This document shows, one piece after another, positions 9,266 to 44,834 of a DNA stretch of 64,000 bases. Within the stretch, counting starts at the first letter, position 1. Every line of letters starts with the position of its first letter. Source of the stretch: an uncultured virus (IMG/VR IMGVR_UViG_3300037601_000035) (lineage: Duplodnaviria > Heunggongvirae > Uroviricota > Caudoviricetes); IMG/VR virus record IMGVR_UViG_3300037601_000035; one strand, given 5' to 3'. The notes under the pieces were generated by a model that was not told the origin of the DNA, did not search any database, and saw only the letters and a program-made list of their open reading frames with translations. The translations under genes were made by a program, and so were the position numbers.

Positions 9266-10117
9266 ATGAGTAAAAAAATAACCTTAAACGTGAAAGATCC
9301 AAAGGCTCTCCAAGCTTTCTTTTCGAAGTTTACAAGCTTAGGATCGACTGTTTTAGCAGTCATTAATAAGGATTCTATTGAAGTAAGTGGATTTGAAGAT
9401 GATAGAAGTACTTATAAAAAATCTACTATTTCTTTTAAAGATGTTTTTGAAGAATCTGAAATAGATATTGATCAACCTATATTTATGAGTTTCTTTTCTA
9501 AAGTATCTAAAATAATTTCTTATTTGAACAACTATTCTGAAAGTTGTAAATTCATAATTACTTATGATGAATTAACTACTCAATCAATAGTAAATTTAAC
9601 TTCAGAATGGAATGACAATAGGAACAATGTTTTAGTAGTAGAACACATAACTTTAAAAGATGATAATTTAAGTTTAAAAATGGGCGCTCCTAGATTAAGT
9701 ATGTCTAAAGCTTCATTTGATATGAATGAAACAAAATTAAATGGTATTCTTGCTGAAACAGAAGATACTCAAATTAAATGTAAATTTGTTTTGAATAAAA
9801 CTATAAAAAGTAAAATTGCTTCTTTGGTAAAAGGAAAATCTTCTTCAGATAATCTTTCAGATATTTTATCGATTAGTATTTCTGAAGACGATAAAGAAAA
9901 TTTAAAAGTTTCTATGAAAAATTATTTTGTATATACATTTCCAGTAGAAGAATATTTTTCAGATTTTGAAATATTTACAGATCCTAAATTTTTAGGTTCT
10001 ATTGATGACGAAGAATATATTTGTCAAGTATATGAAAAACCAAATTTAAATTACACTGTATTTAGTTCTAAAGAATCAAATACTTTTAGTATAACAACAT
10101 CTAAAACATCAGCATAA
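9266..10117 (+). CDS. Possible sliding clamp (gp45/PCNA-like)
   Basis: Size, alternating alpha/beta pattern and position directly before the polymerase; no diagnostic motif. Confidence 0.4.
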   Translation: MSKKITLNVKDPKALQAFFSKFTSLGSTVLAVINKDSIEVSGFEDDRSTYKKSTISFKDVFEESEIDIDQPIFMSFFSKVSKIISYLNNYSESCKFIITYDELTTQSIVNLTSEWNDNRNNVLVVEHITLKDDNLSLKMGAPRLSMSKASFDMNETKLNGILAETEDTQIKCKFVLNKTIKSKIASLVKGKSSSDNLSDILSISISEDDKENLKVSMKNYFVYTFPVEEYFSDFEIFTDPKFLGSIDDEEYICQVYEKPNLNYTVFSSKESNTFSITTSKTSA

Positions 10118-10120
10118 AAT

Positions 10121-11344
10121 ATGACTCCAGTAGAAAAAATAACAGACGAATATCTAAGCAATTTAAGTACATCTGAATTAAAAGAACTTTTAAATGAGTA
10201 TGAAACTGAATATGCCATTTTAGATGCAAATCAGATGTCTATAAAGATCTCTATTAATTCAATGTATGGTGTTTTTGCAAGTCCTTATTTCCATTTCTTC
10301 AGTTATGCAATTGCATCTACTGTTACTGCGATGGGAAGACATATTACACAATCTACAGAAAAAATGTTCAATAAATATTTTCAAGAAGTATGGCCTAAAG
10401 ATACTAAACTTCATGAAATTATGGAAGTTTCAGATGTTCAACCTCCAATAAAAAATGTAGCTATTTATTGTGATACAGATTCAGTATATTTTTCATTAGA
10501 TGAAGTATTTGAAAATTGTACTCTTCCTGAAAAATATTCTGAAGATAAAGAATTTGGAGGAACTCATTTTATTCTAGATATTTGGAATAATAGATTAAAT
10601 TCTTATCTAAAGAAATTTTTTGATAATTATGCAGCTCATTTTGGCGTAGAAAATTTACATAATTTAGAACTTGAAAAAATCTGTAGATCAGGTATTCTAG
10701 CAGCTCCTAAAAAATATGTTCTAGATGTTTCGTGGACAGAAGGTGGAAAAAATGGATTATTCTATAAGAAAAACAAAAAATTTAATTTTACTGGAGGAGA
10801 AGTAGTTCAATCATCTACCCCTAAATATGTAAAAAACATTTTAGAAAAAACTATTGTAGATATTCTAAATAGTGAAAGGGGTAAAATAAATATGCCTGAA
10901 CTATTATCAAAGGTAAAAACAATTAAAGAAGAATACTTCTTACAAGACATTGATGTAATAGCAAAAACAGTAACTGTAAACGATTACGATAAACATATTG
11001 TTTCAGATGGAAAAGATTTAATCTTTAACAAAGGAGCAACTTATCAAGCTAAAGGAGCAGCATATTATAATCATCTATTAAATACTACCGAATCTCAGTA
11101 TAAACAAAAATATCCAATGATAAAATCTAAAGATTCTGTTAAATGGTATTGCGCTGAAATTCCAATTGATAAATGTGATAGATTTGCTTATTTACCAAAT
11201 ATGTTCCCTTATCAATTTGCTCCTGAAATAGACAAAGAAGCTCAATTTGAAAAAAGTTTTCTAGCTCCTTTAAATGCTTATATTCGAGCTTTAGATAAAC
11301 CGCCAATTGACAATAACTTATTTACATCATCTCCACTATTTTAA
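10121..11344 (+). CDS. polB: Family B DNA polymerase, C-terminal subunit (split gp43B-like)
   Basis: Motif B KISINSMYG at aa ~42-50, motif C YCDTDS, KKY, GGEVVQSSTP; lacks the exonuclease domain and motif A. Confidence 0.9.
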   Translation: MTPVEKITDEYLSNLSTSELKELLNEYETEYAILDANQMSIKISINSMYGVFASPYFHFFSYAIASTVTAMGRHITQSTEKMFNKYFQEVWPKDTKLHEIMEVSDVQPPIKNVAIYCDTDSVYFSLDEVFENCTLPEKYSEDKEFGGTHFILDIWNNRLNSYLKKFFDNYAAHFGVENLHNLELEKICRSGILAAPKKYVLDVSWTEGGKNGLFYKKNKKFNFTGGEVVQSSTPKYVKNILEKTIVDILNSERGKINMPELLSKVKTIKEEYFLQDIDVIAKTVTVNDYDKHIVSDGKDLIFNKGATYQAKGAAYYNHLLNTTESQYKQKYPMIKSKDSVKWYCAEIPIDKCDRFAYLPNMFPYQFAPEIDKEAQFEKSFLAPLNAYIRALDKPPIDNNLFTSSPLF

Positions 11345-11364
11345 AAAATAATAAAAAAGAAATT

Positions 11365-11655
11365 ATGGCTAAAAAGAAAAATGAATCAATGGATTTTGCA
11401 TCCATTTTAAATAAAGTACAAGATATAGTTCCTTCTGCAAATGTAGTTTCAGAAGATGATACTTTTAAAATTAATAATTGGGTAGATATGGGTAATTATC
11501 TACTTAATGCTCAAATGACAGGGTCTATTTATAGAGGCCTTCCTGAAGGGAGAGTGTTACTTCTGGCAGGGGATCCGGGTTGTTTACACCCTGATCAAGA
11601 AATAGAAGTTTATATAGGTAAATCTGAAAATTTTAAAGATTTAACAAAGTTATAG
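11365..11655 (+). CDS. uvsX: UvsX/RecA N-extein (72 aa) fused to a 24-aa split-intein N fragment
   Basis: DMGNYLLNAQMTGSIYRGLPEGRVLLLAGDPG then CLHPDQEIEV (intein block A). Confidence 0.9.
   Translation: MAKKKNESMDFASILNKVQDIVPSANVVSEDDTFKINNWVDMGNYLLNAQMTGSIYRGLPEGRVLLLAGDPGCLHPDQEIEVYIGKSENFKDLTKL
11581..11652 (+). mobile_element. Split intein IntN of UvsX
   Basis: Starts with Cys inside Walker A (GDPG|C), block A-like CLHPDQEI, ends at TAG. Confidence 0.85.
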
Positions 11656-11730
11656 AATTTCCAGTTCCAGGTTCACCTGTAATGTGATATATAAAAATAA
11701 AACATTATGACAAGCCTGGAACTAAAAAAT
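11656..11730. promoter_or_regulatory. Homing-site mimic and inverted repeat flanking the GATATATA promoter and endonuclease start codon
   Basis: AGTTCCAGG..TAATGT pairs with ACATTA..CCTGGAACT; GATATATA at 11686-11693 in the loop; reverse complement of 11657-11683 encodes ITGEPGTGN. Confidence 0.7.
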
Positions 11731-13122
11731 ATATTTGCGCAAAAAGAAATATTGTCAAAAGAAGACTACATCATTGAGATAAACAAAATATTTAGTGATT
11801 TAGAAAAAGTTAATTTTGAAAATTTCTACTTAAAATATAAAGAAAAATATTCTACATATTCAAGAAAAAATTCTATTAAGATACTTTTACCTTTAAATAT
11901 AGATTTAAAGAAACATCATTTAGAATATTGGATTGAAAGAAACTATTCTAAAAAAGAAGCTGAATTATTAGCAAAGAAATATAAAAAAATATTAGATAAA
12001 AGTAGATCTAGATTTTGTGTGGAATTTTGGATAAAAAAAGGTTTTTCAGAAGAAGAAGCTAAAGAAGAAATTTCAAAAATACAAGCTAAAAATTCTAAAA
12101 AATCTTTAGACAATAGAAGAAAAACCGGTTACGAATGGTCAGTGAAAAAAAGAAAAAAGAAAAAATGGAAAAAAGAAGGCTTTTCAGAAAAAGAGATAGA
12201 GAAAAAATGGAAATCTTATATTGAAAAAAATAATAATCTTCATTTAGAATATTATTTAGAAAGAGGTTTTTCAGAAGAAGAAGCCAAAGAAGAAATTTTT
12301 AAAACGCAAAGAAAAAGATCTTTAAAAAGGCATTCTAAGAAATATACTAATCCAAAGGAGTATAAAAAAGGAATGAATGTATTTAAAGAATTTTATGAAG
12401 CTAAAGGTTTTTCAGAAGAAGAAGCTATTGAAAAATTAAAAGAAAGACAGTCTACTTTTTCTTTAAAATATTGTATAGAAAAATATGGCGAAAAAGAAGG
12501 AAATAGAATTTTTAATGAAAGACAGAAAAAATGGCAAAATTCTATGGAACTTTTAGACGAGCATACTAAAAACAAAATTAAAAAAGCGAATGCGAATGCT
12601 TCTTTAGAATATCATGTAGAAAAATATGGTGAAAGAGAAGGAACAGAAAAGTTTATTGTAAGACAAGAAAATAGAATGAATTCATTGCGATCGAGTATTA
12701 AATCTTTTAATTTTAAGTATGGTTCAAGTAAAGAGTCATATAAAATGTTTAAAGAAATCGAACACTATTTTGCTTCTAAAAAGAAAAAATATAATCTAAC
12801 ATTTTTATATGGAGAAGATGAATATGGAATTTATGGAAATAATAAAATGAATTTTTATGATTTTACTATCCCTGAATTAAATATTTTAGTAGAATATCAC
12901 GGAACACATGTTCATCCTAACCCAGAATGGAATGAAGAAATTAAAGAAAATTGGGTTCATGCTTTTAATAAAACTAATTATGAAGAAAATTATAATAGAG
13001 ATCTAGAAAAAAGAAAACTTGCAGAAGAGAAAGGTTTTGTTGTTTATGAATATTATTCAGATCAAAATGAAACTGAATTTATAGAAAAAATTATTAACAT
13101 TATAGAGAAAAAATATGAATAA
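11707..13122 (+). mobile_element. Free-standing homing endonuclease (Vsr/DUF559-like PD-(D/E)xK C-terminal domain, N-terminal repeats)
   Basis: YDFTIPELNILVEYHGTHVH...RDLEKRKLAEEKGF; repeats xGFSEEEA and EKYGExEG; lies between the two intein halves. Confidence 0.85.
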
Positions 13123-13612
13123 AAATGATATACTAAAAGAACTTTTATGTTGGTATGAAGATATTAATGAAATTAATACTTCGTTAAATACTAAATTAAA
13201 AAACGATTCTTCTGAAGAATATTATAATACGGTATTCAATATTCATTGTGAAAAAAACACGAAAAAAATAAAAATAAAAGATTTAATAGAAAAGCATAGA
13301 GATAAACAAATAATGATTAATTCATTTGATGGTTATCAAGAAATTATAGAATTCTATGAAAAAAGTAAAAGAGATATTTGGGAAGTTTCTACTGAAATAG
13401 GAACATTAAAGTGTTCTTTGGATCACATGATAGAAACAAAAGAATATGGATGGAAAAAAGTTTCAGAACTTAAAGTTGGGGATATTGCTCTAACGGTAAA
13501 AGGAGAACTTCCATTAATTAAATGCGAAAAAGTAGATGAATCTATAGTATATGATTTTGAAGTAGATCATAAAAATCATAGATATTTTTGTGAAGGATTT
13601 TCTAATCATAAT
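13115..13612 (+). mobile_element. Split intein IntC of UvsX
   Basis: Ends His-Asn followed by Thr(+1); restores Walker A GDPG-TGKT. Confidence 0.88.
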
Positions 13613-14683
13613 ACAGGTAAAACATTTTTATCTATGAATGCTGCTAGAGAAGCTCAAAAATCTTTTGATTCAAAAATATTTTGGTTTGATTCTGAAGGCG
13701 CAATGGATAATGATACATTAGAAAGAATCGGTGTTGATACTTCTAATGTAGTAATAGTTCCCGTTGAAACAATTCGACAAACGTCTCAGGTTATGCTTAA
13801 TATTTTAGATTCAATATCGGGAGAAAATTCTTGTGAATATATGTTTGTTCTAGATTCTTTAGGTAACTTGTCTTCTGATAAAGAAACAGAAGATTTGCTT
13901 TCAGGAAATAATAAAAGAGACATGACTAAACAACAAGAATTAAAGGCTATGTTTAGAACTTTACTTACTAGATTAAGGGTAAAAAGAGTTCCTATGATAG
14001 TTACTTCTCACGTTTATGAAGCAATTGGTTCTTATATTCCAACTAAAATAATTTCAGGTGGATCGGGTGCTAAATTTGGTGCTTCTATTTCATTAATGCT
14101 ATCTACTAGACAATTGAAAAAAGAAGACGATAAAGATGTAGATACTAAAAAGGTTGATAGTGAAATCAAGAAAACTGGAGTTCTTATCAAATCTAAACAA
14201 GAAAAAGCAAGATTCACAAAAGGTGGAATTCCAATTACTCTTCACGTATCTTTTTATAAAGGTATGAATAAGTATGTAGGTTTGCAAGATTATTTAGATT
14301 GGGAAAATTGTAAAGTAGCTCCTGGAAAATTAGTAGATGAATATGAAGAATATGAAACCGGTACAGGTAAAATAGCTAGAAGAAAAACTGGAAATACTGT
14401 ATTTGAACCACACTCTAGTTCTCAAGCTCCTAGAAGTTGGGTGATAGGAAACGGACCAGACGGAGAACCTATTCAAATAAAAACAAAAGAATTTTGGAGA
14501 TACGCGAAAGAAATATTCACTAAAGAAAATTTAGATTATATTGATTCTAGATTACAAGAAGTATTTATGTTTGCTGAGTATGATGCTGTAGAAGAGATGT
14601 TAGCAGAAGAATTAGAAAATGAATCACATTTAAAAGAAACTGTAGTAACTGACGATTCGGACGAAACTTTAGAAGAAGAGTAG
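13115..14683 (+). CDS. uvsX: Split-intein C fragment (166 aa) fused to UvsX/RecA C-extein
   Basis: Intein blocks CSLDH, WKKVSELKVGD, VYDFEV, HN|TGKT; then RecA motifs FDSEGA, VLDSLGNL, SHVY, SGGSG. Confidence 0.92.
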   Translation: MNKNDILKELLCWYEDINEINTSLNTKLKNDSSEEYYNTVFNIHCEKNTKKIKIKDLIEKHRDKQIMINSFDGYQEIIEFYEKSKRDIWEVSTEIGTLKCSLDHMIETKEYGWKKVSELKVGDIALTVKGELPLIKCEKVDESIVYDFEVDHKNHRYFCEGFSNHNTGKTFLSMNAAREAQKSFDSKIFWFDSEGAMDNDTLERIGVDTSNVVIVPVETIRQTSQVMLNILDSISGENSCEYMFVLDSLGNLSSDKETEDLLSGNNKRDMTKQQELKAMFRTLLTRLRVKRVPMIVTSHVYEAIGSYIPTKIISGGSGAKFGASISLMLSTRQLKKEDDKDVDTKKVDSEIKKTGVLIKSKQEKARFTKGGIPITLHVSFYKGMNKYVGLQDYLDWENCKVAPGKLVDEYEEYETGTGKIARRKTGNTVFEPHSSSQAPRSWVIGNGPDGEPIQIKTKEFWRYAKEIFTKENLDYIDSRLQEVFMFAEYDAVEEMLAEELENESHLKETVVTDDSDETLEEE

Positions 14684-21048: not shown

Positions 21049-22119
21049 ATGAAACTTTGGATGACAACAGATTCTCACTTTGGAGTAAAGAATAATTCTG
21101 AAGAATGGTTAGAAATAGCTAGATCTTATTATTATGATTTTTTTATTCCAGAAGTATCAAAAAGAAAAGGACCTACTGATATTTTAGTTCACATGGGAGA
21201 TGTGTTTGATAGTAGAAATGCTATTAATATTTCTGTTATGTGTTTTGCTAAACATCTTTTTAAAGATTTAGCAGCTTTATTTCCAGAAGGAGTTTATGTC
21301 ATTTGTGGAAACCATGATACTTACAGAAAAGATACTAATGAAATTAATTCTTTAGTTATTTTAGAAGGAATAAAAAATGTTCATCTTATAGTAAATGAAG
21401 AAGAAGTGTTAAGAATTCATGATAAAGATATAGCCCTACTTCCATGGCAACTTAGTTCAAAACACGAAAAAGAAACCTTAAAAGGAATTAAAGATTCAGA
21501 TTATCTTTTAGCACATACTTCAGTTATAGGAGCTTTGTATTCAGGAACCCGAAGAGTAGAGCATGGAAATAAACCAGAATCTTATGCTGATTTTGGACAA
21601 GTTTATACAGGACATATTCATACTTCTCAAAAAATAAAGAATGTTAGATTTAATGGTTCACCTTATGAAATTACTAGAAATGATAGAGGAAATCAAAAAT
21701 CTATTTGGGGATTTGATATTAAAACTGGAAAAGAAATTCAAATAATAAACACTTTTTCTCCTAAACATTTATCTATTAATTATGATTCTTTATTAGGAAA
21801 AGAAGAAGATGAAATTAAAAAAATAATTAAAAATAATTTTGTAGATGTAAATGTAAGTTCTGAAATTAAAGATACGAAAGAATTAGATAATTTTATGGAT
21901 ATGTTATCTAATACACAAAGTAGAGATACTAAAATTAAATTTATAGATAAATCTTTAACTCCAGATTCTATAGATATAGATGTAGATATTTCTAAAATGA
22001 AAGAACAGAATAATAGAGAATTAGTTAAAGAATACCTGTCTAAAAAAGGATATAAAGATTCTTTAATAGAAAAATTAGTAGATTATATTGAAATAGAGAT
22101 GAAAAAATTAGAAGGATAA
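21049..22119 (+). CDS. sbcD: gp47/SbcD/Mre11-like recombination nuclease
   Basis: Phosphoesterase motifs DSHFG, GDVFD, GNHD, AH, GHIH, GSPY. Confidence 0.93.
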   Translation: MKLWMTTDSHFGVKNNSEEWLEIARSYYYDFFIPEVSKRKGPTDILVHMGDVFDSRNAINISVMCFAKHLFKDLAALFPEGVYVICGNHDTYRKDTNEINSLVILEGIKNVHLIVNEEEVLRIHDKDIALLPWQLSSKHEKETLKGIKDSDYLLAHTSVIGALYSGTRRVEHGNKPESYADFGQVYTGHIHTSQKIKNVRFNGSPYEITRNDRGNQKSIWGFDIKTGKEIQIINTFSPKHLSINYDSLLGKEEDEIKKIIKNNFVDVNVSSEIKDTKELDNFMDMLSNTQSRDTKIKFIDKSLTPDSIDIDVDISKMKEQNNRELVKEYLSKKGYKDSLIEKLVDYIEIEMKKLEG

Positions 22120-22120
22120 T

Positions 22121-22330
22121 ATGCAAATAGAAGAACTTGAATTTAGAAATATTGGACCGTACGGGAACAATTCACAATCAATTAAATTCGAAAAAACCGG
22201 ATCTTTAAACCTACTGACAGGAAAAAATGGTCATGGGAAATGCGTTCATCCAGATACTATGATAAGTATAAAGTTTGATGATCCTGAATTAGAAAAGAAA
22301 TTTAAAGAGTATGCAAATATACAATATTAA
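22121..22330 (+). CDS. sbcC: gp46/SbcC N-extein (40 aa) fused to a 29-aa split-intein N fragment
   Basis: MQIEELEFRNIGPYGN...LLTGKNGHGK (SMC/Rad50 Walker A) then CVHPDTMI; directly follows gp47. Confidence 0.88.
   Translation: MQIEELEFRNIGPYGNNSQSIKFEKTGSLNLLTGKNGHGKCVHPDTMISIKFDDPELEKKFKEYANIQY
22241..22327 (+). mobile_element. Orphan split intein IntN of gp46
   Basis: Cys directly after the Walker A Lys; block A-like CVHPDTMISIK; no IntC partner in the window. Confidence 0.82.
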
Positions 22331-22353
22331 AGAGACTTAAGGTCTCTTTTTTT
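22329..22353 (+). terminator. Intrinsic terminator after the gp46-IntN fragment
   Basis: AAAGAGAC-ttaag-GTCTCTTT plus a T tract. Confidence 0.8.
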
Positions 22354-22389
22354 GTGAATATATACTAATATTAAATAGACTAAAAATAA

Positions 22390-24180
22390 ATGAAAAATTA
22401 TACGGAGTATTCTAAGGACTTAGAATCGAAAAGACATAGTAATAATCATCTTAAAGAAACAAACACCTCTGGGTTCATCTATGAGGACGAAGATGTAGAA
22501 TCTTTAAACGTAGAAAATGAAATAGGTGGTGATGAAACTGCTACAGCAAATGTAAGTATGGTTACTAGTGTTGCTGAGACATTAACTACTTATGTAGGAA
22601 TGGGTTTGGTAGCAAAATTTGCTTTTAAGAAATTAGGGGGATGGTTAGTTGGTTCAGCTATATCGAAAGCAGGAGCCGCTGCTGTTGCTAAATCTTCTTT
22701 TGCTGTTGGAACTACTGCAGCAGCCGCAGGAGCAGCTAAAGTAAGTATTTTTACAAAGGCTCTTTCTGCATTAGGTGTAAAATCTGCTGTTGCTGCAACT
22801 TCTGCTGGAACTACTACTGGTTTATGGGGAGCAGGATTTTGGACAGGTATAGGAAGATCTTTATTGATGGGAGGAAAAGCCATTCTTAGTTTCTTTACAA
22901 CTGCTGCAGGGGTAACTGTATTAGCGGCAGCCGCGGTTGTATGGGGATTCTTCTATCTTAGAGGAAATCCAGACATGTACGAGATTAAAGAAATCTGGGA
23001 AAATGGAAAACATAAAAAGAGTACTAGTAAAACAAAGATAAAAAATATTTATAAATCTGTTGCTGGAGGTTTATTTGCTTCTAAAACAGCAGGACTTTCT
23101 TTTTTAGGAAAATTAAATGATAGTTTTAAAGGAGAAGGAAAGTTTACCATAAGAATTGCAGACGATCAAAAATCTCTTAAGTATGTAGAAGAGTACATGA
23201 AAGGAATAGAGAAATTAGGAGAGTCTATAACTGAATCTTCTTTGATGAATGAAATTTTAGCAGGAGATTCTAAAGAAGATTGGATAGATGAAGTATTTGA
23301 TCAATATGCAGGATTTAATGTTTCAGGAAGAAAAGATATAGAAGATTATACTTCTATGAAAGCTTATGTTTCTAAGTATATGTTAGAAAATGACGATGAT
23401 GAAAAAAATCCTTATAAGATGTCGGTAGCAGAAGAATCAGAAGGATGGTATGATACTTTCTTTGATAATTTTATTCCTGGGATGAATACTATTGGATGGG
23501 CTTCTTGGATGCTTTCAGAAGAATATTTAAATCAAGCAAATAGTACTCACAATATTACCAATAGAAAATGGTTACATCAGGTAATACGTTCTTATTGGAA
23601 TAATAGAGTTGATAATTTAGATGCTTCGAATTTTGGAATTCAAGAATTTCAAAAATATTGTAAAATCATTTTAGGAAATGATTCTCTTTTAACTGATATT
23701 GGATTTTTAAGACAATTAGAATATGGTGTTTTAAATGAAGATGGTAAGTATACAACTAAAGGGTCATTTGAAGATTTACTTAAACAAGTAGGACCGTTTG
23801 TTACTAAATTTTTAAAGGCAAACGCTGCTTCAGATAAAAAAGTTCCTGTTACAAATGTTACTTTAGCATTTGCTACATTTTGGGCTTCTTATGCTCTAAT
23901 GGCTTCTATATGGGAAGGCTCGATTACTTACTTAGCTTTAATGCAACTTATATATGGAATAGAAGAAGGATCTAAGAAACATGATGTACTTAAAAAATTT
24001 AGTATAGATGATGAATACGAATCGGGAGAAAAAGTAGATCAAACAAATAACAATTCTAAAGGAGGTGTTAAAGGATCACAGGATTATGGAGACATCTCAC
24101 CAGAAATACATCAAAAAAATGCAGATATAGTTATAAATAAATTTAAAGAACTTGAAGGCCTAGATCAATTCCGTGGCTAA
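22390..24180 (+). CDS. Large Ala/Gly-rich protein with hydrophobic helices, candidate ejected virion protein
   Basis: AATATATA at 22357-22364; MKNYTEY start; long A/G-rich hydrophobic region at aa ~55-190. Confidence 0.6.
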   Translation: MKNYTEYSKDLESKRHSNNHLKETNTSGFIYEDEDVESLNVENEIGGDETATANVSMVTSVAETLTTYVGMGLVAKFAFKKLGGWLVGSAISKAGAAAVAKSSFAVGTTAAAAGAAKVSIFTKALSALGVKSAVAATSAGTTTGLWGAGFWTGIGRSLLMGGKAILSFFTTAAGVTVLAAAAVVWGFFYLRGNPDMYEIKEIWENGKHKKSTSKTKIKNIYKSVAGGLFASKTAGLSFLGKLNDSFKGEGKFTIRIADDQKSLKYVEEYMKGIEKLGESITESSLMNEILAGDSKEDWIDEVFDQYAGFNVSGRKDIEDYTSMKAYVSKYMLENDDDEKNPYKMSVAEESEGWYDTFFDNFIPGMNTIGWASWMLSEEYLNQANSTHNITNRKWLHQVIRSYWNNRVDNLDASNFGIQEFQKYCKIILGNDSLLTDIGFLRQLEYGVLNEDGKYTTKGSFEDLLKQVGPFVTKFLKANAASDKKVPVTNVTLAFATFWASYALMASIWEGSITYLALMQLIYGIEEGSKKHDVLKKFSIDDEYESGEKVDQTNNNSKGGVKGSQDYGDISPEIHQKNADIVINKFKELEGLDQFRG

Positions 24181-24209
24181 ATAAAACTATTTTTGTTGTT
24201 TTCATATTG

Positions 24210-24244
24210 AATCTCTACTAATTAATTTTAGTAGAGATTTTTTT
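24210..24244 (+). terminator. Intrinsic terminator
   Basis: AATCTCTACTAA-ttaatt-TTAGTAGAGATT plus a T tract. Confidence 0.8.
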
Positions 24245-24268
24245 ATTTAAAAAATTTTTCTTATATTA
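24240..24268 (+). promoter_or_regulatory. Putative early promoter (shared with 61376-61404 minus strand)
   Basis: TTTTTATTTAAAAAATTTTTCTTATATTA, 26/29 identical to the second copy; AAGGAG RBS downstream in both. Confidence 0.45.
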
Positions 24269-24318
24269 CAACACATTCAATTAACAATTAAGAAAAATTT
24301 TAAAGGAGTAACGTATCG

Positions 24319-25866
24319 ATGAGTTTAAAATCAGCAAGAAAAAAGTATTTAGATACAGGGGAAGTTTCTGAAGAAGTTTTCAACGAATTAAAAAAGAATG
24401 ATCCTTCTAAAACGTTTAAATATATCGAAGCAATGTGTGACTACTATTTAACTAAATCTCCAGATCTCGGTTATCCACAAGCATTTAAACAGAATCATAG
24501 GATTAAATTTATAAGTAAAATTATCTACCATTGGGAAAGATTTAGAAAAAAAGGTTATATTAAAGAAGATATTAATCAATTAAATTTTAATGAATGTGTA
24601 GAGATAGTTTTAGAGACCGGATATGAATTTAATATTAAATTTATGGAAAAAAAGGACACTAGAAAATATCATGAAACTGTTATTGTAGATAACGATAAAT
24701 TCAAAATTGTAGTTCCGCATACAGATATGGGTTCTATAAAATACGGATCAGGAACTAGATGGTGTACTGCTGCAAAAAGATCCAATAGATTCAATGAATA
24801 TCAAAACGCAGGTCATTTTTTCTATTACGTTCACTTTAAAGATTTAGATACTCATCCTAATAATCCTGAATTAAATTCAAATTATTATAAAACTGCTATA
24901 GATATAGATATTGAAGAGGATGAAATTAGATTTTGGGATGTTAATGACAATAAAATTTTAACTTGTTACAGTATAGATTTAGAAGAACCTGCAAAAGAGG
25001 TTAGAAAGGATTTACAAGAATTTATTGAACGTCATTATTCTCTAGAATTCCAAAAAGTTTATGTTCCTATAATTAAATATTTAACTTTCAATAGACGTTT
25101 TTTAAGTAAAAAATATATTCAACAAAATAATTTGGCAACGCTTTTACCTAATAATGGAGGATATATTTTCAATGATGATGGAACATTAGATAAATTTTAT
25201 GGAGATTGTGATTTAAATTCATATATTGAAGAGAAAGGAGAAAATTGTATAAAAATAAAGAATTTTATAGGAGATGGTTTATATTTAAATAATTTGAAGA
25301 TAAATGATTTATCTAACTATATTGAAAACGTTGAATGTTATAAAATAGAAGCTAACAATTTAGATTTAAATAAATGGTCTAGTTTTCCAAAAGGAAGTAC
25401 TTATTATATTGATTTAACTAATAGCAAAATTAAAAATTTATATCATTTAAAAGATATTTCTTACTTTAAAATAAATTTGAATTGGAGTCAAATAAAATCT
25501 TTAAAGCTTATTAGTAAAAATGTTTTAAGTATACACGCAAATGGAGTACCTTTAGAAAAAATAGATTGTAAATTACCAAATAAAATGGATGAGATTGTAT
25601 TAGAAAATAATAATTTAAAATCTTTGAAAAATTTACCTGATAATGTAGGAGAAGTTTATTTACGAAATAATAATATTCAGGATTTAAAGTATTTGCCACT
25701 AAAATTTGATACTATATTTTTAGATGACAATGAAATTAAAGAAATTCCTGAAAATTTAATGTCTCATCAGTTTAATAGATTATATTTACACAGAAATAAA
25801 ATTAAAATTAATGATATTTTTATTGAAGATTTAGTGTTAAATAATAAAAGAGGATCTTGGCAATGA
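24319..25866 (+). CDS. WCT-domain + LRR protein (family B, leaderless)
   Basis: DPSKTFKY, IVVPHT..SIKYGSGTRWCTAA, C-terminal LRRs (NNLKSLKNLP). Confidence 0.85.
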   Translation: MSLKSARKKYLDTGEVSEEVFNELKKNDPSKTFKYIEAMCDYYLTKSPDLGYPQAFKQNHRIKFISKIIYHWERFRKKGYIKEDINQLNFNECVEIVLETGYEFNIKFMEKKDTRKYHETVIVDNDKFKIVVPHTDMGSIKYGSGTRWCTAAKRSNRFNEYQNAGHFFYYVHFKDLDTHPNNPELNSNYYKTAIDIDIEEDEIRFWDVNDNKILTCYSIDLEEPAKEVRKDLQEFIERHYSLEFQKVYVPIIKYLTFNRRFLSKKYIQQNNLATLLPNNGGYIFNDDGTLDKFYGDCDLNSYIEEKGENCIKIKNFIGDGLYLNNLKINDLSNYIENVECYKIEANNLDLNKWSSFPKGSTYYIDLTNSKIKNLYHLKDISYFKINLNWSQIKSLKLISKNVLSIHANGVPLEKIDCKLPNKMDEIVLENNNLKSLKNLPDNVGEVYLRNNNIQDLKYLPLKFDTIFLDDNEIKEIPENLMSHQFNRLYLHRNKIKINDIFIEDLVLNNKRGSWQ

Positions 25867-27515
25867 GTTTAAAATCTGCTAGAGAAAAATATTTAAAAAC
25901 AAAAAAAGTTTCTAAAGAAGTTTTCAATAAACTAAAAGAACTAGATCCTTCTAAAAGCTATAAGTATCTTGAAGCTATGTGTGATATGTATGAAAATTAT
26001 TATTTTTACATAAATGAAGATGACCACTACCCGGAAAAGTTTTTAACTCTATATAAAATAAAATGGGTAGAAAGATTAATTTATCATTGGGATAGGTTTA
26101 GAAAAAAGGGTTACATTAAAGAAGATATAAATCAACTTTCTGCTGATACAATTAGAACTATTTTAGTTCGAGTATTTGAAAAATATAATATTAAATTTAT
26201 AGAAAAAAATGACACTCGAAAATATAAAAAAACTATTCTAGAAAACAATGATGATATACAAGTAGTTATTCCTCACACAGATACTGCTTCTATAAAATAC
26301 GGGTACGGAACTCAATGGTGTACAGCAGGAACAGAAGATAACAGATTTAATCAATATCAAAATTCTAATTGTGTTTTATATTATTTCTATTTTAAATATT
26401 TAGATAGGCATCCAGACGATCCATCTTCAAATAGTAATTTGTATAAATTAGCAGCAGAAGTTAGTAGAGAAGAACAATATATTAAATTTTGGGATGTTGA
26501 AGATTCAAATGTTTATGTAATACATTGGGAAAATACAAAAAACACTGAAGAAAATCTAGAAGAAATTTATAAAAAAATAGCAATATGGAAATCTTTAGAT
26601 CCTCCACATAGAGCAGATTTTCATGATATAATTAAACTTGCAGTATCTTATATAGATTTTTCAGAAAAATATTTTGATGAAAAATATAAAGAACAAAATA
26701 GCAAATACGACAAAGAAATAATTGACGAAGTAGGAAGTTATAGAGTATTTAATGATGATGGAACATTAGATGTATTTGGATATAATAATTATATTCCAAC
26801 AGACTACCCTATTAAAATTAAAAATTGTTTTTGTAGAAGTTTATTTATAAGGGAAATTTATTTTGAAAATTTAAATATTGAAAATATAACTTCTGTATAT
26901 TTATACGGAGGTAATTTAAAAATAGATAATTGGAAATCTTTTTCTAACGGATTAATATATGATCTGGATTTACATGATTCTGATATTGACGATTTAAAAC
27001 ATATTTCAAATATTTCATATTGGAAATTAGACGTTTCAAATACTAAAATTAAAACACTTTTAAATTTAAATACTCAGCATTTGGAAATATTTAACGGAAG
27101 TTCTAATGAAATAAATGAAATAGAAGTAGTATTTCCAGAAAAAATGAAAGAAATTAATTTAAGTAAATGTAAAATAAAAAAGATTAAAGGGTTACCTAAA
27201 AAAATGAATTTACTAAATTTAGTAGATAATGAAATTGAAAAAATAGAAAATCTTCCTCAATGGACAAGAAGAATATTGTTAATGGAAAATAATATTAAGT
27301 CTTTACCCGAAAATCTTTCGAATAGTAATTTTGAATCGTTAAATCTTTCTTACAACAAAATAGTTATAAACGATATAGATGTTTCTGAACTTTCATTGTC
27401 CAACCCTAGAACTGCAGAAGAAACGTTAATTTTACCAAATAGTAAAAAAATTATAGTAAATTCGGGTATTACACTTAGTGAAAGTACTTGCGACAGAGCC
27501 GGGGTACCATTTTAA
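25863..27515 (+). CDS. WCT-domain + LRR protein (family B, leaderless)
   Basis: Start set at ATG 25863 (MSLKSA, ATGA overlap); KYGYGTQWCTAG; LRRs; ends GVPF. Confidence 0.85.
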   Translation: MSLKSAREKYLKTKKVSKEVFNKLKELDPSKSYKYLEAMCDMYENYYFYINEDDHYPEKFLTLYKIKWVERLIYHWDRFRKKGYIKEDINQLSADTIRTILVRVFEKYNIKFIEKNDTRKYKKTILENNDDIQVVIPHTDTASIKYGYGTQWCTAGTEDNRFNQYQNSNCVLYYFYFKYLDRHPDDPSSNSNLYKLAAEVSREEQYIKFWDVEDSNVYVIHWENTKNTEENLEEIYKKIAIWKSLDPPHRADFHDIIKLAVSYIDFSEKYFDEKYKEQNSKYDKEIIDEVGSYRVFNDDGTLDVFGYNNYIPTDYPIKIKNCFCRSLFIREIYFENLNIENITSVYLYGGNLKIDNWKSFSNGLIYDLDLHDSDIDDLKHISNISYWKLDVSNTKIKTLLNLNTQHLEIFNGSSNEINEIEVVFPEKMKEINLSKCKIKKIKGLPKKMNLLNLVDNEIEKIENLPQWTRRILLMENNIKSLPENLSNSNFESLNLSYNKIVINDIDVSELSLSNPRTAEETLILPNSKKIIVNSGITLSESTCDRAGVPF

Positions 27516-27528
27516 ATAGGAGAATAAA

Positions 27529-29202
27529 ATGAGTTTAAAAACTGCTAAAGAAAAATATTTACTTAAGAAAAAAATAAACAAAAAACTTTTTAATAAACTT
27601 AAAGAAGCGGATCCTTCTAAAAGCTACAAGTATCTTGAAGCTATGTGTAAATTTTATTTACAAAACGATTTTACAGAACACGACATTCCTAAACTTGCAA
27701 GATACATTTATCATTGGAATAGATTTAGAAAAAAGAAATACATTAAAGAAGATATTAATCAGTTAAATTTTAATGAATTTAACCGTATCTTAACTGAAGT
27801 AGGAATGAAATATAATGATAAAATTTTAAAAACTTTAGATTCGCATACTTCTGAAACTGTAATAGTAGACAATGAAAAATTAAAAATTGTAGTTCCTCAT
27901 ACAAAATATGCATCTATTAAACATGGCGCAGGAACCAAGTGGTGTACGTCTGCAAAGAACAGTAACAGATTTCGTGAATATAGAAATTCTTCTAGTGTTT
28001 TGTATTATGTCCACTTTAAAGATTTAGACGATTTTCCAGATAAACCTATGCATAATGATTCTCAATATAAAACTGCATATTTAGTAGATTATGAAGAAAA
28101 TTTAGTTGAACTTTGGGACGCAGACGATTCTCTACTATATTCTTTTCGTTTTGAAAACGAAGAAAAAGCAAAGGAAACATTAAAAGAATTTAATGCGAAT
28201 CATGTAGAAGCTTTGAGATTAATTGATTATAAAAATGAAGAGTTTATAAAAGATAAATACTTTACTCTAAGTCCTAAAATTTCTTTTATTGAAAAACTAC
28301 AAAGTTATTATACTCAATTAGTATATGTATTTAATGATGACAAAACAATTGACATTTTTGAAAGAGCAGAAGAAATGTCAGATATTATAAGTTCTATTTA
28401 TATGTCTTCTTTTCCTATAAAAATAAAATATCTTTTTGGAAGTCGCTCAAATTTAATTGTTCATGATAAAGAATTTTATGATAATTTACCAGAGTTCGTT
28501 TATTTAAAAACAGAATTAAGATTTGTGAACTATATGCCCTCTAACACTCACAATTTTTCTGTGAAGTTGCCTAAAGGAAGAGTAAGAGAGTTTTGTATTA
28601 TACACGGAAATATTTCACATATAGATTATACTGATTTAGAAATTACTTCAAAAATATTTCTAAAACATACCGAAATTAAATCATTAAAAAATATCCCGTT
28701 AAATATCAAAGCTTTGACAGTAAATTACAATAACTTGAAACAAATAGATTTACCTAGAGGAAATAAAATATGTTACTTAAATTTAGAAGATAATAATATA
28801 ACTAAAATAGAAAATCTAAATGATAAAATGGATAATCTTATTTTAGCAAATAATAAAATAACTAAAGTTGAAAATTTGCCTTCATATTGTGTTAATATAG
28901 ATTTAAAAAGAAATCCAATAAAAGAAATTTCTGATTTATCTAAGAATGGTTTTGAAGATTTAGAAATAGAATCTTCAGCCAATTTTAAAATGAACGGAGC
29001 ATTTATTAGAAGTGTTCGTTTATCTAATCCTCGTCAAAAAGAAACGGAAAAAATAAATGAAGAAATAGAAGAATCGATAGAAGAAGATTTATCTTTATCA
29101 GGAGGGTATACTACTATATGGGGTAAAAAACCTGTCTATGCAGTACAAAATGAAGATTATGAAATAGAAATAATTGAAGTAGATGAAAATATACCATTTT
29201 AA
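27529..29202 (+). CDS. WCT-domain + LRR protein (family B, leaderless)
   Basis: KHGAGTKWCTSA; LRRs; acidic tail ending DENIPF. Confidence 0.85.
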   Translation: MSLKTAKEKYLLKKKINKKLFNKLKEADPSKSYKYLEAMCKFYLQNDFTEHDIPKLARYIYHWNRFRKKKYIKEDINQLNFNEFNRILTEVGMKYNDKILKTLDSHTSETVIVDNEKLKIVVPHTKYASIKHGAGTKWCTSAKNSNRFREYRNSSSVLYYVHFKDLDDFPDKPMHNDSQYKTAYLVDYEENLVELWDADDSLLYSFRFENEEKAKETLKEFNANHVEALRLIDYKNEEFIKDKYFTLSPKISFIEKLQSYYTQLVYVFNDDKTIDIFERAEEMSDIISSIYMSSFPIKIKYLFGSRSNLIVHDKEFYDNLPEFVYLKTELRFVNYMPSNTHNFSVKLPKGRVREFCIIHGNISHIDYTDLEITSKIFLKHTEIKSLKNIPLNIKALTVNYNNLKQIDLPRGNKICYLNLEDNNITKIENLNDKMDNLILANNKITKVENLPSYCVNIDLKRNPIKEISDLSKNGFEDLEIESSANFKMNGAFIRSVRLSNPRQKETEKINEEIEESIEEDLSLSGGYTTIWGKKPVYAVQNEDYEIEIIEVDENIPF

Positions 29203-29215
29203 ATAGGAGAATGAA

Positions 29216-30754
29216 ATGAGTTTAAAATTAGCTAGAAAAAAATATGTAGAAACCGGAAAGATTAATAAAGAAGAATTTAATAAGTTAAAAGAAGCGGTTC
29301 CTTTTAAAGCATATAAATATATGATATTTATTTGTGAACTTTATTTACACCAATATTCTCATTTTTATATAAAATTTATTACTAAATCTATGTATAATTT
29401 AGATAAAAGAAATAAGTATAACATGTATAATCCATACCAAGAATTTTCTATCCATAAAATGTGTACTGATGTTGAAGCAATTACAAATAGATTTATACGA
29501 AATAGTGAAGACGTAAAATCACACGAATTGATTCTTAGAGATGATGAAGAATGGAAAATAGTAGTTCCGTTAAATAAAACATCTTCGATAAAATACGGCT
29601 ATGGAGCTAAATGGTGTACTGCAGCAACTGAAAGTAAAAATTATTTCTACTATCATGTATATCCTAATGGAACTTTATACTATTTTCAAAATAAAAAATT
29701 ATCACCGAATGCTAAAAGATATAAAATGGCAGTTCATTCTAATAGTAACGGAATAACTATTTGGGATGCGCCTAATGATCAGATATATTCTGAATATACA
29801 AAAAACAAATTAAGCAAATTATTACCACAAGAATATCAAAATTTTCCAATTCTTAATAAAGAGTTCGAAGAAATATCGTCATTTAGTGGGGTCGACATTC
29901 TTATTGATGTAGATGAAATAAAAATAACTAAAAATATAGACAGCACTTATGATTTACATAACTTTTATATTAGAAATCAAAGAGATGATTTTTTTAAAAA
30001 TTTAAAAATTAAAAATATTCATGGCGAATGTCATTTTTTTAGTAAAACGTTGAAAGATTTAAATATACTTTCTTCTGTAGAATTTATTAATGAAATTGAA
30101 ATCCATTCAAATAATTTAGAAACTTTAGAAGGACTTCCTTCTAATAATAGATTGATTATTAGAGGAGGGGTTGGATATGAAAGAGTAAATGAAAATCCTT
30201 TTTCTTTTAAAGGAATTCCTAAAAAATTAAAAAACTTGAAGATTGAAAGTTTAGATAAAATAGACTACATAGATTATATGCCTGATATTATTACTGGTGA
30301 ATTATTTTTAGAAAGAAACTCAGCTAATTACACATTAAATTTTAAACAATTTCCTTCTAAAATTAATACTTTCCGTATCGGTTTTGGACATAATAAAATT
30401 AAAATTAACCCAAAAATTGAAATTGATTTAGAAAATTTAATTATTCATAGCTGTTTAAGAATAGACAATGATAAAAATTTATTAGATAATATCAATATTC
30501 AAACGTTAAAACATATTCAAATTAAAGACATTCCAACGATGACAATACTTGAATTTTTATCAACTCTCCCGTCTAGTTGTGTTGTTGAAATAAATTTCAC
30601 TATTAATGAGACGGGTAGCATTGGAGAAATAGTATATCTAAAAAGAAAACTAGATGAATTAAAAGCACAAGTACATTTTAATATTTTGGGTTTTGATATG
30701 GACCAATTAGAAAATATGGTAGAAGAAAGAACTGAACTTCTGGAATCTTTGTAA
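29216..30754 (+). CDS. WCT-domain + degenerate LRR protein (family B, leaderless)
   Basis: MSLKLARKKY, KYGYGAKWCTAA, NNLETLEGLP. Confidence 0.8.
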   Translation: MSLKLARKKYVETGKINKEEFNKLKEAVPFKAYKYMIFICELYLHQYSHFYIKFITKSMYNLDKRNKYNMYNPYQEFSIHKMCTDVEAITNRFIRNSEDVKSHELILRDDEEWKIVVPLNKTSSIKYGYGAKWCTAATESKNYFYYHVYPNGTLYYFQNKKLSPNAKRYKMAVHSNSNGITIWDAPNDQIYSEYTKNKLSKLLPQEYQNFPILNKEFEEISSFSGVDILIDVDEIKITKNIDSTYDLHNFYIRNQRDDFFKNLKIKNIHGECHFFSKTLKDLNILSSVEFINEIEIHSNNLETLEGLPSNNRLIIRGGVGYERVNENPFSFKGIPKKLKNLKIESLDKIDYIDYMPDIITGELFLERNSANYTLNFKQFPSKINTFRIGFGHNKIKINPKIEIDLENLIIHSCLRIDNDKNLLDNINIQTLKHIQIKDIPTMTILEFLSTLPSSCVVEINFTINETGSIGEIVYLKRKLDELKAQVHFNILGFDMDQLENMVEERTELLESL

Positions 30755-43211: not shown

Positions 43212-44834
43212 CTATTTTTTATTGTTCATTTTATTTATATATTTTAATGTTTTATTGTAGGCTTCAGGATCCCAGTCTTTTAATTTTTCTAAAGCTCTTT
43301 CTTGTTCTTCCTTTGTTAATTTCAAAAATTCTTCAATTCCTGTTTTTAAATTAAATCCGCTTCCTGTATAATTATGTATAATATCCTGTATTTCTATTTT
43401 TGTTTTAGGAGAAATTATAGGATTTTTATGTAGATTTATATTTTCTATAATTTTAATTGAAGATGGAAATTTTAAAATTGTTAATTTATTTTTAATTATA
43501 GAAATACTAAATATTTTTTCATTTTTTAATCCTTCTAAACCGTTAAAATTTTCAATTTGATTGTTTGAACAATATAACATAAATAATTTTTCTAATTTTT
43601 CTAAACCTTTAAAATCTTTTAAATAATTTGTTTGTACGTTCAGAGTATAAAGAGATTTAATTTTCCCTAACCCCTTTAAATTTGTTAACTTATTATTAGG
43701 TAAAGACAAGTCTTCCACCTCTGTTAAGCTTTTAAGATGTTCTAAAGTATATAATTGGTTGTACCCTAAATTAAGATATGTTGCTTGTTGTAAGTTTTCT
43801 AATCCTTTTAAATTTGTAATGTTTAAATGTCTTATAGTAAGATATTTATGTATATGTGTTAACTGTTTAAGATCTTCTAAAGAAGTTAAATTTTCACATC
43901 CTTCTAAAATAAATGAAATTGCAACTTTTAAATGTTGAAGCATTTTAAGATTTGTTAATTTATCATCATTTAATATTTTTATAGTTCCTTCTACAGCTTC
44001 TAAATAAATATTTTCTTTTTCTAAAAAATCAAATACTTCTTTACTTAAATGAAGATCTCCTTTATAGTAGTATAACCCATTTTCTAATTTTTTTAAATTA
44101 TTTTTCTCTATCCCAAATTTTTCAAATTGATTCAATTCAATACTTAAATTCCTAGGTCTAAAGGTATTTGCTGGAATATATTTAAACAATTCTTTTGGAA
44201 TTTCTTCAAATGACATAGAATAATCTGTTGCATCAAATACGTTAGAATTTCCGTTTGGATAAATAGCTACAGCAATTTGATGTAAACTGTCTTCTTTAGA
44301 TTTTCTTTTGTCTAAAATATAGTAAAGAGTAACATCATCTCTGTATCGATACTCTTTAAAACGGTTTTGCGATCTGGTAGCAGCCGTACACCATCTAGTT
44401 CCTTGACCATATTTACAAGAAGCTTCTTCTGTATCTGGAACAACTACTCTAAAATATTCATTATCAAGAATAACCTGTATTCCCTCTTCTTTTTCTTTCT
44501 GATATTCTTTAGTTTCTAGTTTAGTTGACCCTTGATCTATTTCCTTTTTGAAATCTTCATAACTTAATCTTTGAATATCTTTATTTTTAATTAAATTTCT
44601 AGAAGATAATTTGTCAAATTCTTTTATTTGCTTTTCTAAAGCTTCTACATCAACTTTATGTTCTAAGTGATATTCGATCATTTTTTCTACATATTTAAAT
44701 GATGAACTTGGATCTATAGAAACTAATTTATCAAAAGTTTCTTTATCTATTTTATCTGTTTCTAAGAACCTTCTTTTAGCAGTTGCTTTAGATTCATTTA
44801 AAAATTCTGTATATCCTTTTACTATTTTATTCAT
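43212..44834 (-). CDS. WCT-domain + LRR protein (family B, with capsid-targeting-like leader)
   Basis: MNKIVKGYTEFLNES; SCKYGQGTRWCTAA; many LTNLKGLE LRRs; WDPEAY cap. Confidence 0.88.
   Translation of the reverse strand: MNKIVKGYTEFLNESKATAKRRFLETDKIDKETFDKLVSIDPSSSFKYVEKMIEYHLEHKVDVEALEKQIKEFDKLSSRNLIKNKDIQRLSYEDFKKEIDQGSTKLETKEYQKEKEEGIQVILDNEYFRVVVPDTEEASCKYGQGTRWCTAATRSQNRFKEYRYRDDVTLYYILDKRKSKEDSLHQIAVAIYPNGNSNVFDATDYSMSFEEIPKELFKYIPANTFRPRNLSIELNQFEKFGIEKNNLKKLENGLYYYKGDLHLSKEVFDFLEKENIYLEAVEGTIKILNDDKLTNLKMLQHLKVAISFILEGCENLTSLEDLKQLTHIHKYLTIRHLNITNLKGLENLQQATYLNLGYNQLYTLEHLKSLTEVEDLSLPNNKLTNLKGLGKIKSLYTLNVQTNYLKDFKGLEKLEKLFMLYCSNNQIENFNGLEGLKNEKIFSISIIKNKLTILKFPSSIKIIENINLHKNPIISPKTKIEIQDIIHNYTGSGFNLKTGIEEFLKLTKEEQERALEKLKDWDPEAYNKTLKYINKMNNKK

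Follow-up and report, generated by a model that had tools for sequence, protein, structure and literature searches.

In the 64,000-nucleotide stretch of phage DNA analysed here (the window), the gp46 gene, which encodes the Rad50/SbcC-like partner of gp47, is present as an N-terminal fragment of 40 residues that runs directly into a predicted split-intein N-fragment (IntN) and stops. Our analysis leans slightly towards the view that this 69-aa ORF is the working N-half of a split-intein gp46, with its partner at least 30 kb away in DNA that has not been assembled. That such a partner exists, where it lies and that splicing occurs, we infer from the evidence set out below. The arrangement, in which a phage gene is fractured and its intein atypically split, is of a known kind, and the orphan state of this half is its one unusual feature. 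The features of the locus are as follows.

21049-22119, + strand: gp47 (SbcD/Mre11-like nuclease subunit), intact, 356 aa; PHROG 100 SbcD-like, E 2.6e-53.
22121-22240, + strand: gp46 (Rad50/SbcC-like) N-extein, residues 1-40, ending with the Walker A motif GKNGHGK.
22241-22327, + strand: predicted IntN of 29 aa from an atypically split intein, with Cys1 and block A CVHPDT-I-I-F followed by a helix-like tail.
22328-22356, + strand: stop codon TAA (22328-22330), intrinsic-terminator-like hairpin (22329-22349) and T-run; fold of -11.9 kcal/mol in a 90-nt context.
22390-24180, + strand: unrelated ORF of 596 aa with an Ala/Gly-rich hydrophobic N-part, 59 bp after the N-fragment stop.

In T4-type phages, gp47 is the obligate partner of gp46 and the two act together. 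The gp47 of the window passes the Pfam Metallophos cut-off (28.1 against 21.5 bits), and the start codon of the 69-aa ORF (22121-22330, + strand), which is preceded by an AAGGA Shine-Dalgarno-like box, lies 2 nt 3' of the gp47 stop. The N-extein gives weak scores with library models (PHROG 77, SbcC, E 7.5e-4; Pfam AAA_23, E 7e-4 and 20.6 bits, below the cut-off of 27) because just 40 residues of gp46 are present. It matches a 4-phage gp46 profile at positions 1-44 (E 2e-8), a 120-protein gp46 profile at positions 1-46 (E 2.7e-8) and residues 1-42 of the gp46 of locus L017 (E 5e-11). The ORF has the N-terminal beta-strands and the Walker A motif of gp46/Rad50/SbcC proteins; the coiled coil, CxxC zinc hook, signature motif, Walker B and D-loop are absent from it and from the assembled genome. 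Residues 41-69 begin CVHPDTMISIKF, and Cys41 together with the next 28 residues reads CVHPDTMISIKFDDPELEKKFKEYANIQY. The TAA overlaps the terminator hairpin, which has a 9-bp stem; terminator-like sites number 3 in 3.6 kb against 0.7 expected.

The ORF at 22390-24180 sits where relatives carry an endonuclease gene and the fusion of the intein C-fragment with the rest of gp46 (IntC-gp46C). It belongs to no Pfam or PHROG family, has no homologue in the related phage G002 and shows no similarity to the endonuclease ORFs of the relatives or of the UvsX locus of the window. The exact T4-type late box TATAAATA, which is found upstream of just 7 of 225 ORFs, is absent upstream of this ORF, where a near-match is present. 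The preliminary description of this DNA had read an intact gp47, gp46 residues 1-40 up to GKNGHGK, a 29-aa IntN, a TAA and a terminator, all of which is borne out by the ORF coordinates, the profiles and the hairpin scan. It was also right in calling the next gene unrelated, but the late motif that it gave to this gene comes down to the near-match. Paralogous ORFs of about 510-560 aa follow one another directly downstream of the split-gp46 locus (24319-30751, + strand), with further members at 57542-59023 and 43215-44834 (- strand); the N-domain, assigned to PHROGs 17056 and 28193 of unknown function, is common to them, and their C-parts are leucine-rich-repeat-like.

The tail of the 69-aa ORF is, to judge from its sequence, an intein N-fragment. 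Residues 41-69 align to the beginning (~30 residues) of the contiguous inteins that L099 and L106 have at the same Walker A site, and also to the IntN of five fractured relatives. Cys41 opens block A directly after GKNGHGK, and CVHPDT-I-I-F is invariant in all five family members. Among the homologues with a complete intein at this site, the contiguous protein of L099 scores 37.0 bits with Pfam Intein_splicing against a cut-off of 35.8. Invariant residues in 18 IntC-gp46C proteins are S66 and H69 (block B), D112, I113 and V115 (block F), and G125, H129 and N130/S131 (block G with the HN/S junction; here and below, a slash within a sequence marks the splice junction). The IntN is 29 residues long and ends at a natural stop, and those of relatives have 27-40 residues, whereas natural split inteins are described as usually having an IntN of ~100 residues (PMC10189870). 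A 29-aa IntN of this kind, with a long predicted IntC, is of the atypically split type.

The 69-aa protein occurs on 7 contigs in a collection of 5.8 billion proteins. Four diverged metagenomic protein clusters (67-72 aa) are 67-70% identical to it and have the same end point, and it retains all 32 columns that are invariant among the four diverged proteins; on the strength of this common end and these 32 of 32 columns, we take the N-fragment family to be real and constrained. The cluster mate P0006 differs from the window protein by one residue, at a variable position.

At this Walker A site, the relatives together present what reads as a complete evolutionary series. An alignment search of IMG/VR with the N-fragment gave 80 loci, 76 of which have an intact gp46 of 556-580 aa; among the other four, one is cut by a contig end, one has a 285-aa ORF and two are split (this phage again and G002). 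L099 and L106 have a cis mini-intein at the same Walker A point within a single gp46 ORF of about 712-722 aa. In L100, L101, L114 and L115, gp46 is fractured around an intact endonuclease-like ORF of 377-380 aa, as it is in L180 (group range about 347-380 aa), and in L097 (= G002) and L102 it is fractured with a decayed endonuclease. The downstream gene of the fractured relatives opens with a 123-136-residue IntC ending in ...SHN, after which come Ser and the remainder of gp46, and gp47 lies directly upstream in G002, L100, L114 and L180. The order in G002 is gp47, gp46N-IntN (80 aa, CVMPDT), a decayed endonuclease-like ORF and IntC(129-130 aa)-gp46C. Its N-fragment is 49% identical to the window protein over 59 aa, and its IntC-gp46C gives Rad50_zn_hook and SbcC_Walker_B matches below cut-off.

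A separate scan, with IntC-gp46C proteins as queries, gave 80 loci, of which the analysis covered the 8 with a match that begins at query residue 8 or earlier and so takes in the IntC (L099, L106, L100, L101, L114, L115, L097 and L102); the other 72 matches begin at residue 79-131. IntC-gp46C proteins are abundant, with an invariant block B (S..H), block F and HN/S junction, and 232 IntC-bearing proteins of the gp46 family were obtained at E <= 1e-5. A junction-pattern scan of JGI metagenomes gave 4 loci, all of the adjacent type and none from this phage. A third class, with Ser1 inteins, comprises 8 split loci with gaps of 1.1-1.5 kb and 43 loci classed as intact. In all 18 other split gp46 loci examined, several of which are repeats of one lineage, the halves are 0.3-1.5 kb apart, usually around an endonuclease gene (the adjacent loci include G002/L016, L100, L114, L102, L180 and L199-L246); the preliminary description was thus correct that phage fractured genes normally keep their halves adjacent. 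The window locus agrees with them in host gene and Walker A insertion site and has a homologous IntN. However, where these loci have IntC-gp46C, it has a terminator and an unrelated gene. Our literature search, in which candidates on Rad50 and bacteriophages were judged by titles and the beginnings of abstracts, gave no paper naming a split-intein gp46 or SbcC. In L012 (Prevotella phage Lak-B6, ~9370-11044), gp46 is one 558-aa protein only if TAG is read as sense (table 15); under table 11 the ORF covers just its last 159 aa.

The window also holds a complete, classic fractured UvsX gene (11365-14683, + strand) with all its parts adjacent, which the first reading of this DNA had missed.

11365-11655, + strand: UvsX N-part with a predicted 24-aa IntN, ...GDPG/CLHPDQEIEV...
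11707-13122, + strand: free-standing endonuclease-like ORF, 471 aa, with repeated 'KGFSEEEA' motifs; no Pfam or PHROG match.
13115-14683, + strand: predicted IntC (~167 aa, ending ...FSNHN/TGKTF) with the UvsX C-part; RecA Pfam E 1e-9, PHROG 97 E 8e-39.

The endonuclease ORF of this locus has homologues (E 1e-23 to 1e-32) inside the gp46 loci of relatives in which gp46 is fractured. The gp46 and UvsX inteins of this phage are related (IntC profile E 1.3e-8) and both have a short IntN (29 against 24 aa, with CLHPD in UvsX), but the UvsX locus is complete with adjacent halves while the gp46 locus has the N-half alone. Long hairpins precede endonuclease ORFs at ~11666-11720 in the window, ~8825-8870 in L100 and ~4846-4892 in L114. 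They enclose an A/T-rich late-promoter-like box and pair with the endonuclease start codon, which suggests that translation of the endonuclease is gated by promoter choice. The hairpin 3' of the gp46 N-fragment is not of this long, start-codon-sequestering type but an ordinary terminator.

Fractured phage genes in which the halves are separated by a free-standing endonuclease gene were described by Dassa, London, Stoddard, Schueler-Furman and Pietrokovski in 2009 (PMC2677866), in whose model loss of the endonuclease is stage III and dislocation of the halves is stage IV. The split inteins described there have an IntN of 88-105 residues, the examples given of separated halves come from cyanobacteria and Nanoarchaeum alone, and Rad50, SbcC and gp46 have 0 mentions in the main text. 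As in these fractured genes, a phage gene of DNA metabolism is cut in two by a split intein in the window, and relatives of the gp46 locus have a hairpin-preceded endonuclease ORF between the halves, the hairpins resembling the 5' UTR hairpins drawn by Dassa et al. In contrast to them, the gp46 locus of the window has no endonuclease gene and no C-half, and its IntN has 29 rather than 88-105 residues; the endonuclease ORFs of the relatives, compared with the Vsr-like family in that paper, have no Pfam match above cut-off. The best reading of the gp46 arrangement by this analogy is stage IV, 'dislocation into two separate loci'. The system resembles atypically split inteins in having a 29-aa IntN and a long IntC (123-136 aa in gp46 relatives, ~167 aa in UvsX of the window), and also in its setting, which is metagenomic DNA of a phage-like kind and enzymes of replication or repair. 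It differs from those described in the host protein, gp46/Rad50, in the Walker A site and in the predicted nucleophiles Cys1 and Ser+1. A second likeness, should the partner exist, would be to cyanobacterial split DnaE, with its separate loci, lack of an endonuclease gene and trans-splicing; dnaE-n and dnaE-c are reported to be more than 700 kb apart (PMC2874743). The DnaE case, however, belongs to a cellular genome; its split site is the typical one, with a long IntN and a short IntC, and its partner is known and proven, whereas a gp46 partner was not found in 215.6 kb.

The window is the minus strand of positions 143201-207200 of G000, a linear IMG/VR phage contig of 211,581 bp with 27% G+C. 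A rough estimate by CheckV puts the completeness of G000 at 82%, and its first ORF is truncated by the contig end, so the record is incomplete. A second IMG/VR contig, G001 (139,352 bp), has 135,330 bp in common with G000, the junction included, and shows 2 mismatches there (99.999% identity). With a 4,022-bp extension from G001, the assembled DNA that we searched comes to 215.6 kb, about 80-90% of the genome. The stretch is present in 17 public runs, mostly pond metagenomes and with no RNA run among them; X1-X6 contain it at full length, and the depth of G000 is about 17x in X1 and 9x in X7.

The preliminary description had raised misassembly at 22330 as a way in which its reading could fail. 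An endonuclease gene and IntC-gp46C that really follow 22330 could have been skipped by the assemblers, given that variable mobile-element sites can collapse in metagenome assemblies and that the exact junction lies outside the coverage of runs X8 and X14. However, the two IMG/VR contigs agree, and the junction is bridged with 0 differences by a 3,824-bp contig (20416-24239) of run X1, a possible source sample, and by a 2,209-bp contig (22031-24239) of run X7, which is not flagged as a possible source. The run contigs show no indel, insertion, joint or listed loose end near 22330, and the 69-aa protein recurs on its 7 contigs. The junction is real and is no assembly error; we give an artefact of assembly or population almost no credence. 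In other parts of this DNA, an intergenic element at 24175-24341, which includes a hairpin with a 13-bp stem (24209-24240), recurs at high copy in the metagenomes, the summed contig depth in this bin rising from about 9-18 to 51-632, and many metagenome contigs end or diverge at 24237-24291. Outside the window, G000 carries a transposase gene at 76901-78121 (L190:16901-18121; PHROG 506, E 3e-114), at which G001 ends (G000 position 76,252).

The C-half was sought in G000 and G001 in six frames (ORFs of at least 30 aa, HMMER --max) with the gp46 of LR756500.1, the 4-phage and 120-protein gp46 profiles, a profile of 18 IntC proteins, and the single proteins G002 IntC-gp46C, P0222 and L017 gp46. 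These profile searches gave no IntC-gp46C in the 215.6 kb. With every query, the gp46 part matched the N-fragment alone and the intein part matched the UvsX IntC alone; the single-sequence search with LR756500.1 gp46 likewise found the N-fragment alone. The same profiles find the Rad50 C-lobe of G002 at E 0. PHROG 77 and SMC_N searches of G000 and G001 returned nothing and missed the N-fragment itself, so they are not counted as negatives. An IntC with blocks B, F and G, a terminal Asn and a +1 Ser, Thr or Cys was not found in the 215.6 kb besides that of UvsX, and among 4 pattern matches to ...H[NQ][STC] ends with at least 250 aa downstream, UvsX alone was intein-like. In IMG/VR, the N-junction pattern occurred in this phage alone and the C-junction pattern in G002 alone, and a walk off both contig ends with exact 40-mers reached no new contig. 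P0222 (648 aa) was considered as a partner class since its longest contig has 7,040 bp, as has that of the N-fragment P0004. It was rejected: members of this class in IMG/VR have Ser1 inteins (GNNGNGK/S), distantly similar N-exteins and no adjacent gp47.

No gp46 C-part lies within 30.5 kb upstream or 184.9 kb downstream of the N-fragment, and a partner, if one exists, is at least that far away in the orientation of the window. The statement in the preliminary description that no ORF of the window joins an IntC to SbcC features therefore extends to the whole 215.6 kb. It had taken the partner to lie outside the window or to be lost, which stands, although its bounds of 22 kb upstream and 41 kb downstream are superseded by these distances. 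The search that it proposed for such an ORF, run on the 215.6 kb, IMG/VR and JGI metagenomes, returned none of this phage. Its central idea, a domesticated, endonuclease-free trans-splicing system with an unlinked and separately regulated partner, stays a proposal, the partner having been found neither in the 215.6 kb nor in the collections.

A partner might also be encoded within the assembled DNA in a form too diverged or fragmented to be recognized. Many ORFs of this phage have no family, and the clade fragments its genes heavily, UvsX being cut twice in G002 and gp43 lying in two unlinked halves. The Rad50 C-lobe with its signature motif and Walker B is strongly conserved, however, and the same profiles recognize it in G002; the best G000 matches other than the N-fragment have E >= 0.015 and fall in a low-complexity coiled-coil region, and no second intein end of the type ...HN followed by S, T or C was seen apart from UvsX. 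We regard such an overlooked partner as extremely improbable.

The DNA polymerase gene bears on what the missing part of the genome may hold. The polymerase ORF of the window (10121-11341, + strand, 407 aa) starts at position 134 of the 453 of the DNA_pol_B profile. The C-half of G002 gp43 matches G000 at E 4e-71, and the N-half matches nothing at E <= 1; in G002 itself, the halves are encoded at 11305-12687 and 23570-24745, with about 11 kb between the N-half, which is upstream, and the C-half. The family-B DNA polymerase of this clade is thus encoded in two unlinked halves, with no intein seen at the break. Cyanophage queries for the gp43 N-half, gp44, gp45 and gp62 found nothing in assembled G000, while the gp43 C-half, UvsX and gp41 of the same origin were found at E 1e-19 to 1e-38. 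The negatives for the clamp and clamp loader are soft, as diverged forms could be present, and that for gp45 by the Pfam profile DNA_PPF is void, as this profile matched no control genome. At least one indispensable gene piece, the gp43 N-half, lies outside the assembled DNA, and so a piece that the contig lacks need not be missing from the genome. With an incomplete genome, an unlinked partner and a lost one look alike.

If the 69-aa ORF is a working half, gp47 and the N-fragment would be translated from one transcript ending at the hairpin, and the 69-aa product would present a 40-residue N-extein bearing the 29-residue IntN. The strand and helix of the IntN would dock onto a separately made long IntC of about 125-170 residues ending in HN, after which the partner would continue with Ser or Thr and the other ~520 residues of gp46. 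Removal of the intein by protein trans-splicing would restore the Walker A loop GKNGHGK-S/T, and the full-length gp46 would pair with gp47. The endonuclease gene that first fractured gp46 would have been lost in this phage, and IntC-gp46C, no longer next door, would most likely lie in the unassembled 10-20% of the genome. The fuller version of this proposal, that of a stage IV phage without the endonuclease, in which an intein with a 29-aa IntN rejoins gp46 halves that belong to different transcription units and are separated by at least 30 kb, we put at even chances; the C-half would then be elsewhere, perhaps with the equally displaced polymerase N-half.

The working half is supported by the intact N-fragment, the full series in relatives and the intact and tightly coupled gp47, and it has precedents in print in Dassa stage IV and split dnaE. 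A partner in unassembled DNA is supported by the incomplete record and the off-contig gp43 N-half. Against the working half counts the failure to find its partner in the 215.6 kb or the collections. The N-fragment could instead be a recent relic, left intact but useless when the endonuclease gene and IntC-gp46C were deleted or replaced, in a phage that would have no Rad50 subunit of its own. If it were free to settle anywhere, a relocated partner would be expected in the 80-90% that is assembled sooner than in the missing part, which favours loss. The gene order common to G000 and G002 (gp43 C-half, UvsX, gp41, small ORF, gp47, gp46N) breaks exactly at the N-fragment stop, where the terminator and the unrelated gene follow, and with all 18 other split loci undislocated, dislocation is without precedent in the gp46 family. 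Yet the N-fragment retains 32 of 32 invariant columns, its start context and its coupling to gp47, and gp47, which acts together with gp46 in T4-type phages, is intact as well; other essential gene pieces are also off-contig, and the same state in two assemblies and several runs indicates that it is fixed in the population. A very recent loss would leave an equally perfect N-fragment. On this evidence we consider a relic rather unlikely, though a serious contender; if the partner is truly lost, the locus would be a case of ordinary gene decay caught early.

To our knowledge, phage split inteins have so far been viewed as by-products of homing-endonuclease invasion with their halves side by side. 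The literature that we searched contained no description of dislocated split-intein halves for any phage gene. If the 69-aa ORF is indeed a working half with a distant partner, an essential recombination ATPase would be encoded in two far-apart genes, as a stable and endonuclease-free way of encoding one protein. Such a state, seen in none of the 18 other split gp46 loci, would be to phages what the DnaE arrangement is to cyanobacteria, and would mean that the fractured state can survive genome rearrangement, as Dassa et al. proposed.

Split inteins with a short IntN are sought for protein labelling, and such an IntN can be made synthetically. The gp46 short-IntN family is large and diverse, which gives it practical relevance for labelling tools.

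Within the 215.6 kb there are two IntNs and one IntC, which raises the question of whether the gp46 IntN binds the IntC of UvsX (13115-13615) and thereby either acts as a decoy, tuning the maturation of UvsX, or makes a chimera. The relatedness of the two inteins is seen again with P0222 (E 5e-6 against the UvsX IntC), and both IntNs of this phage have C-x-H-P-D and an alternating I/V pattern. Relatedness in sequence is not equal to binding, however, and a gp46(1-40)-UvsX(C) chimera would be without the UvsX N-domain and of no evident use. Moreover, relatives with both inteins have a cognate IntC for each, and co-resident split inteins are generally orthogonal. Cross-talk of this kind seems to us very unlikely. 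The UvsX gene of G002 (L183, 25632-29942) is apparently fractured at two sites: a 327-aa N-part is followed by a short piece (27727-28179) that starts with an IntC ending in ...GIVSHN/S, then by an endonuclease-like ORF (28211-29278), and finally by a second IntC ending in ...GIISHN/S with the C-part (29208-29942).
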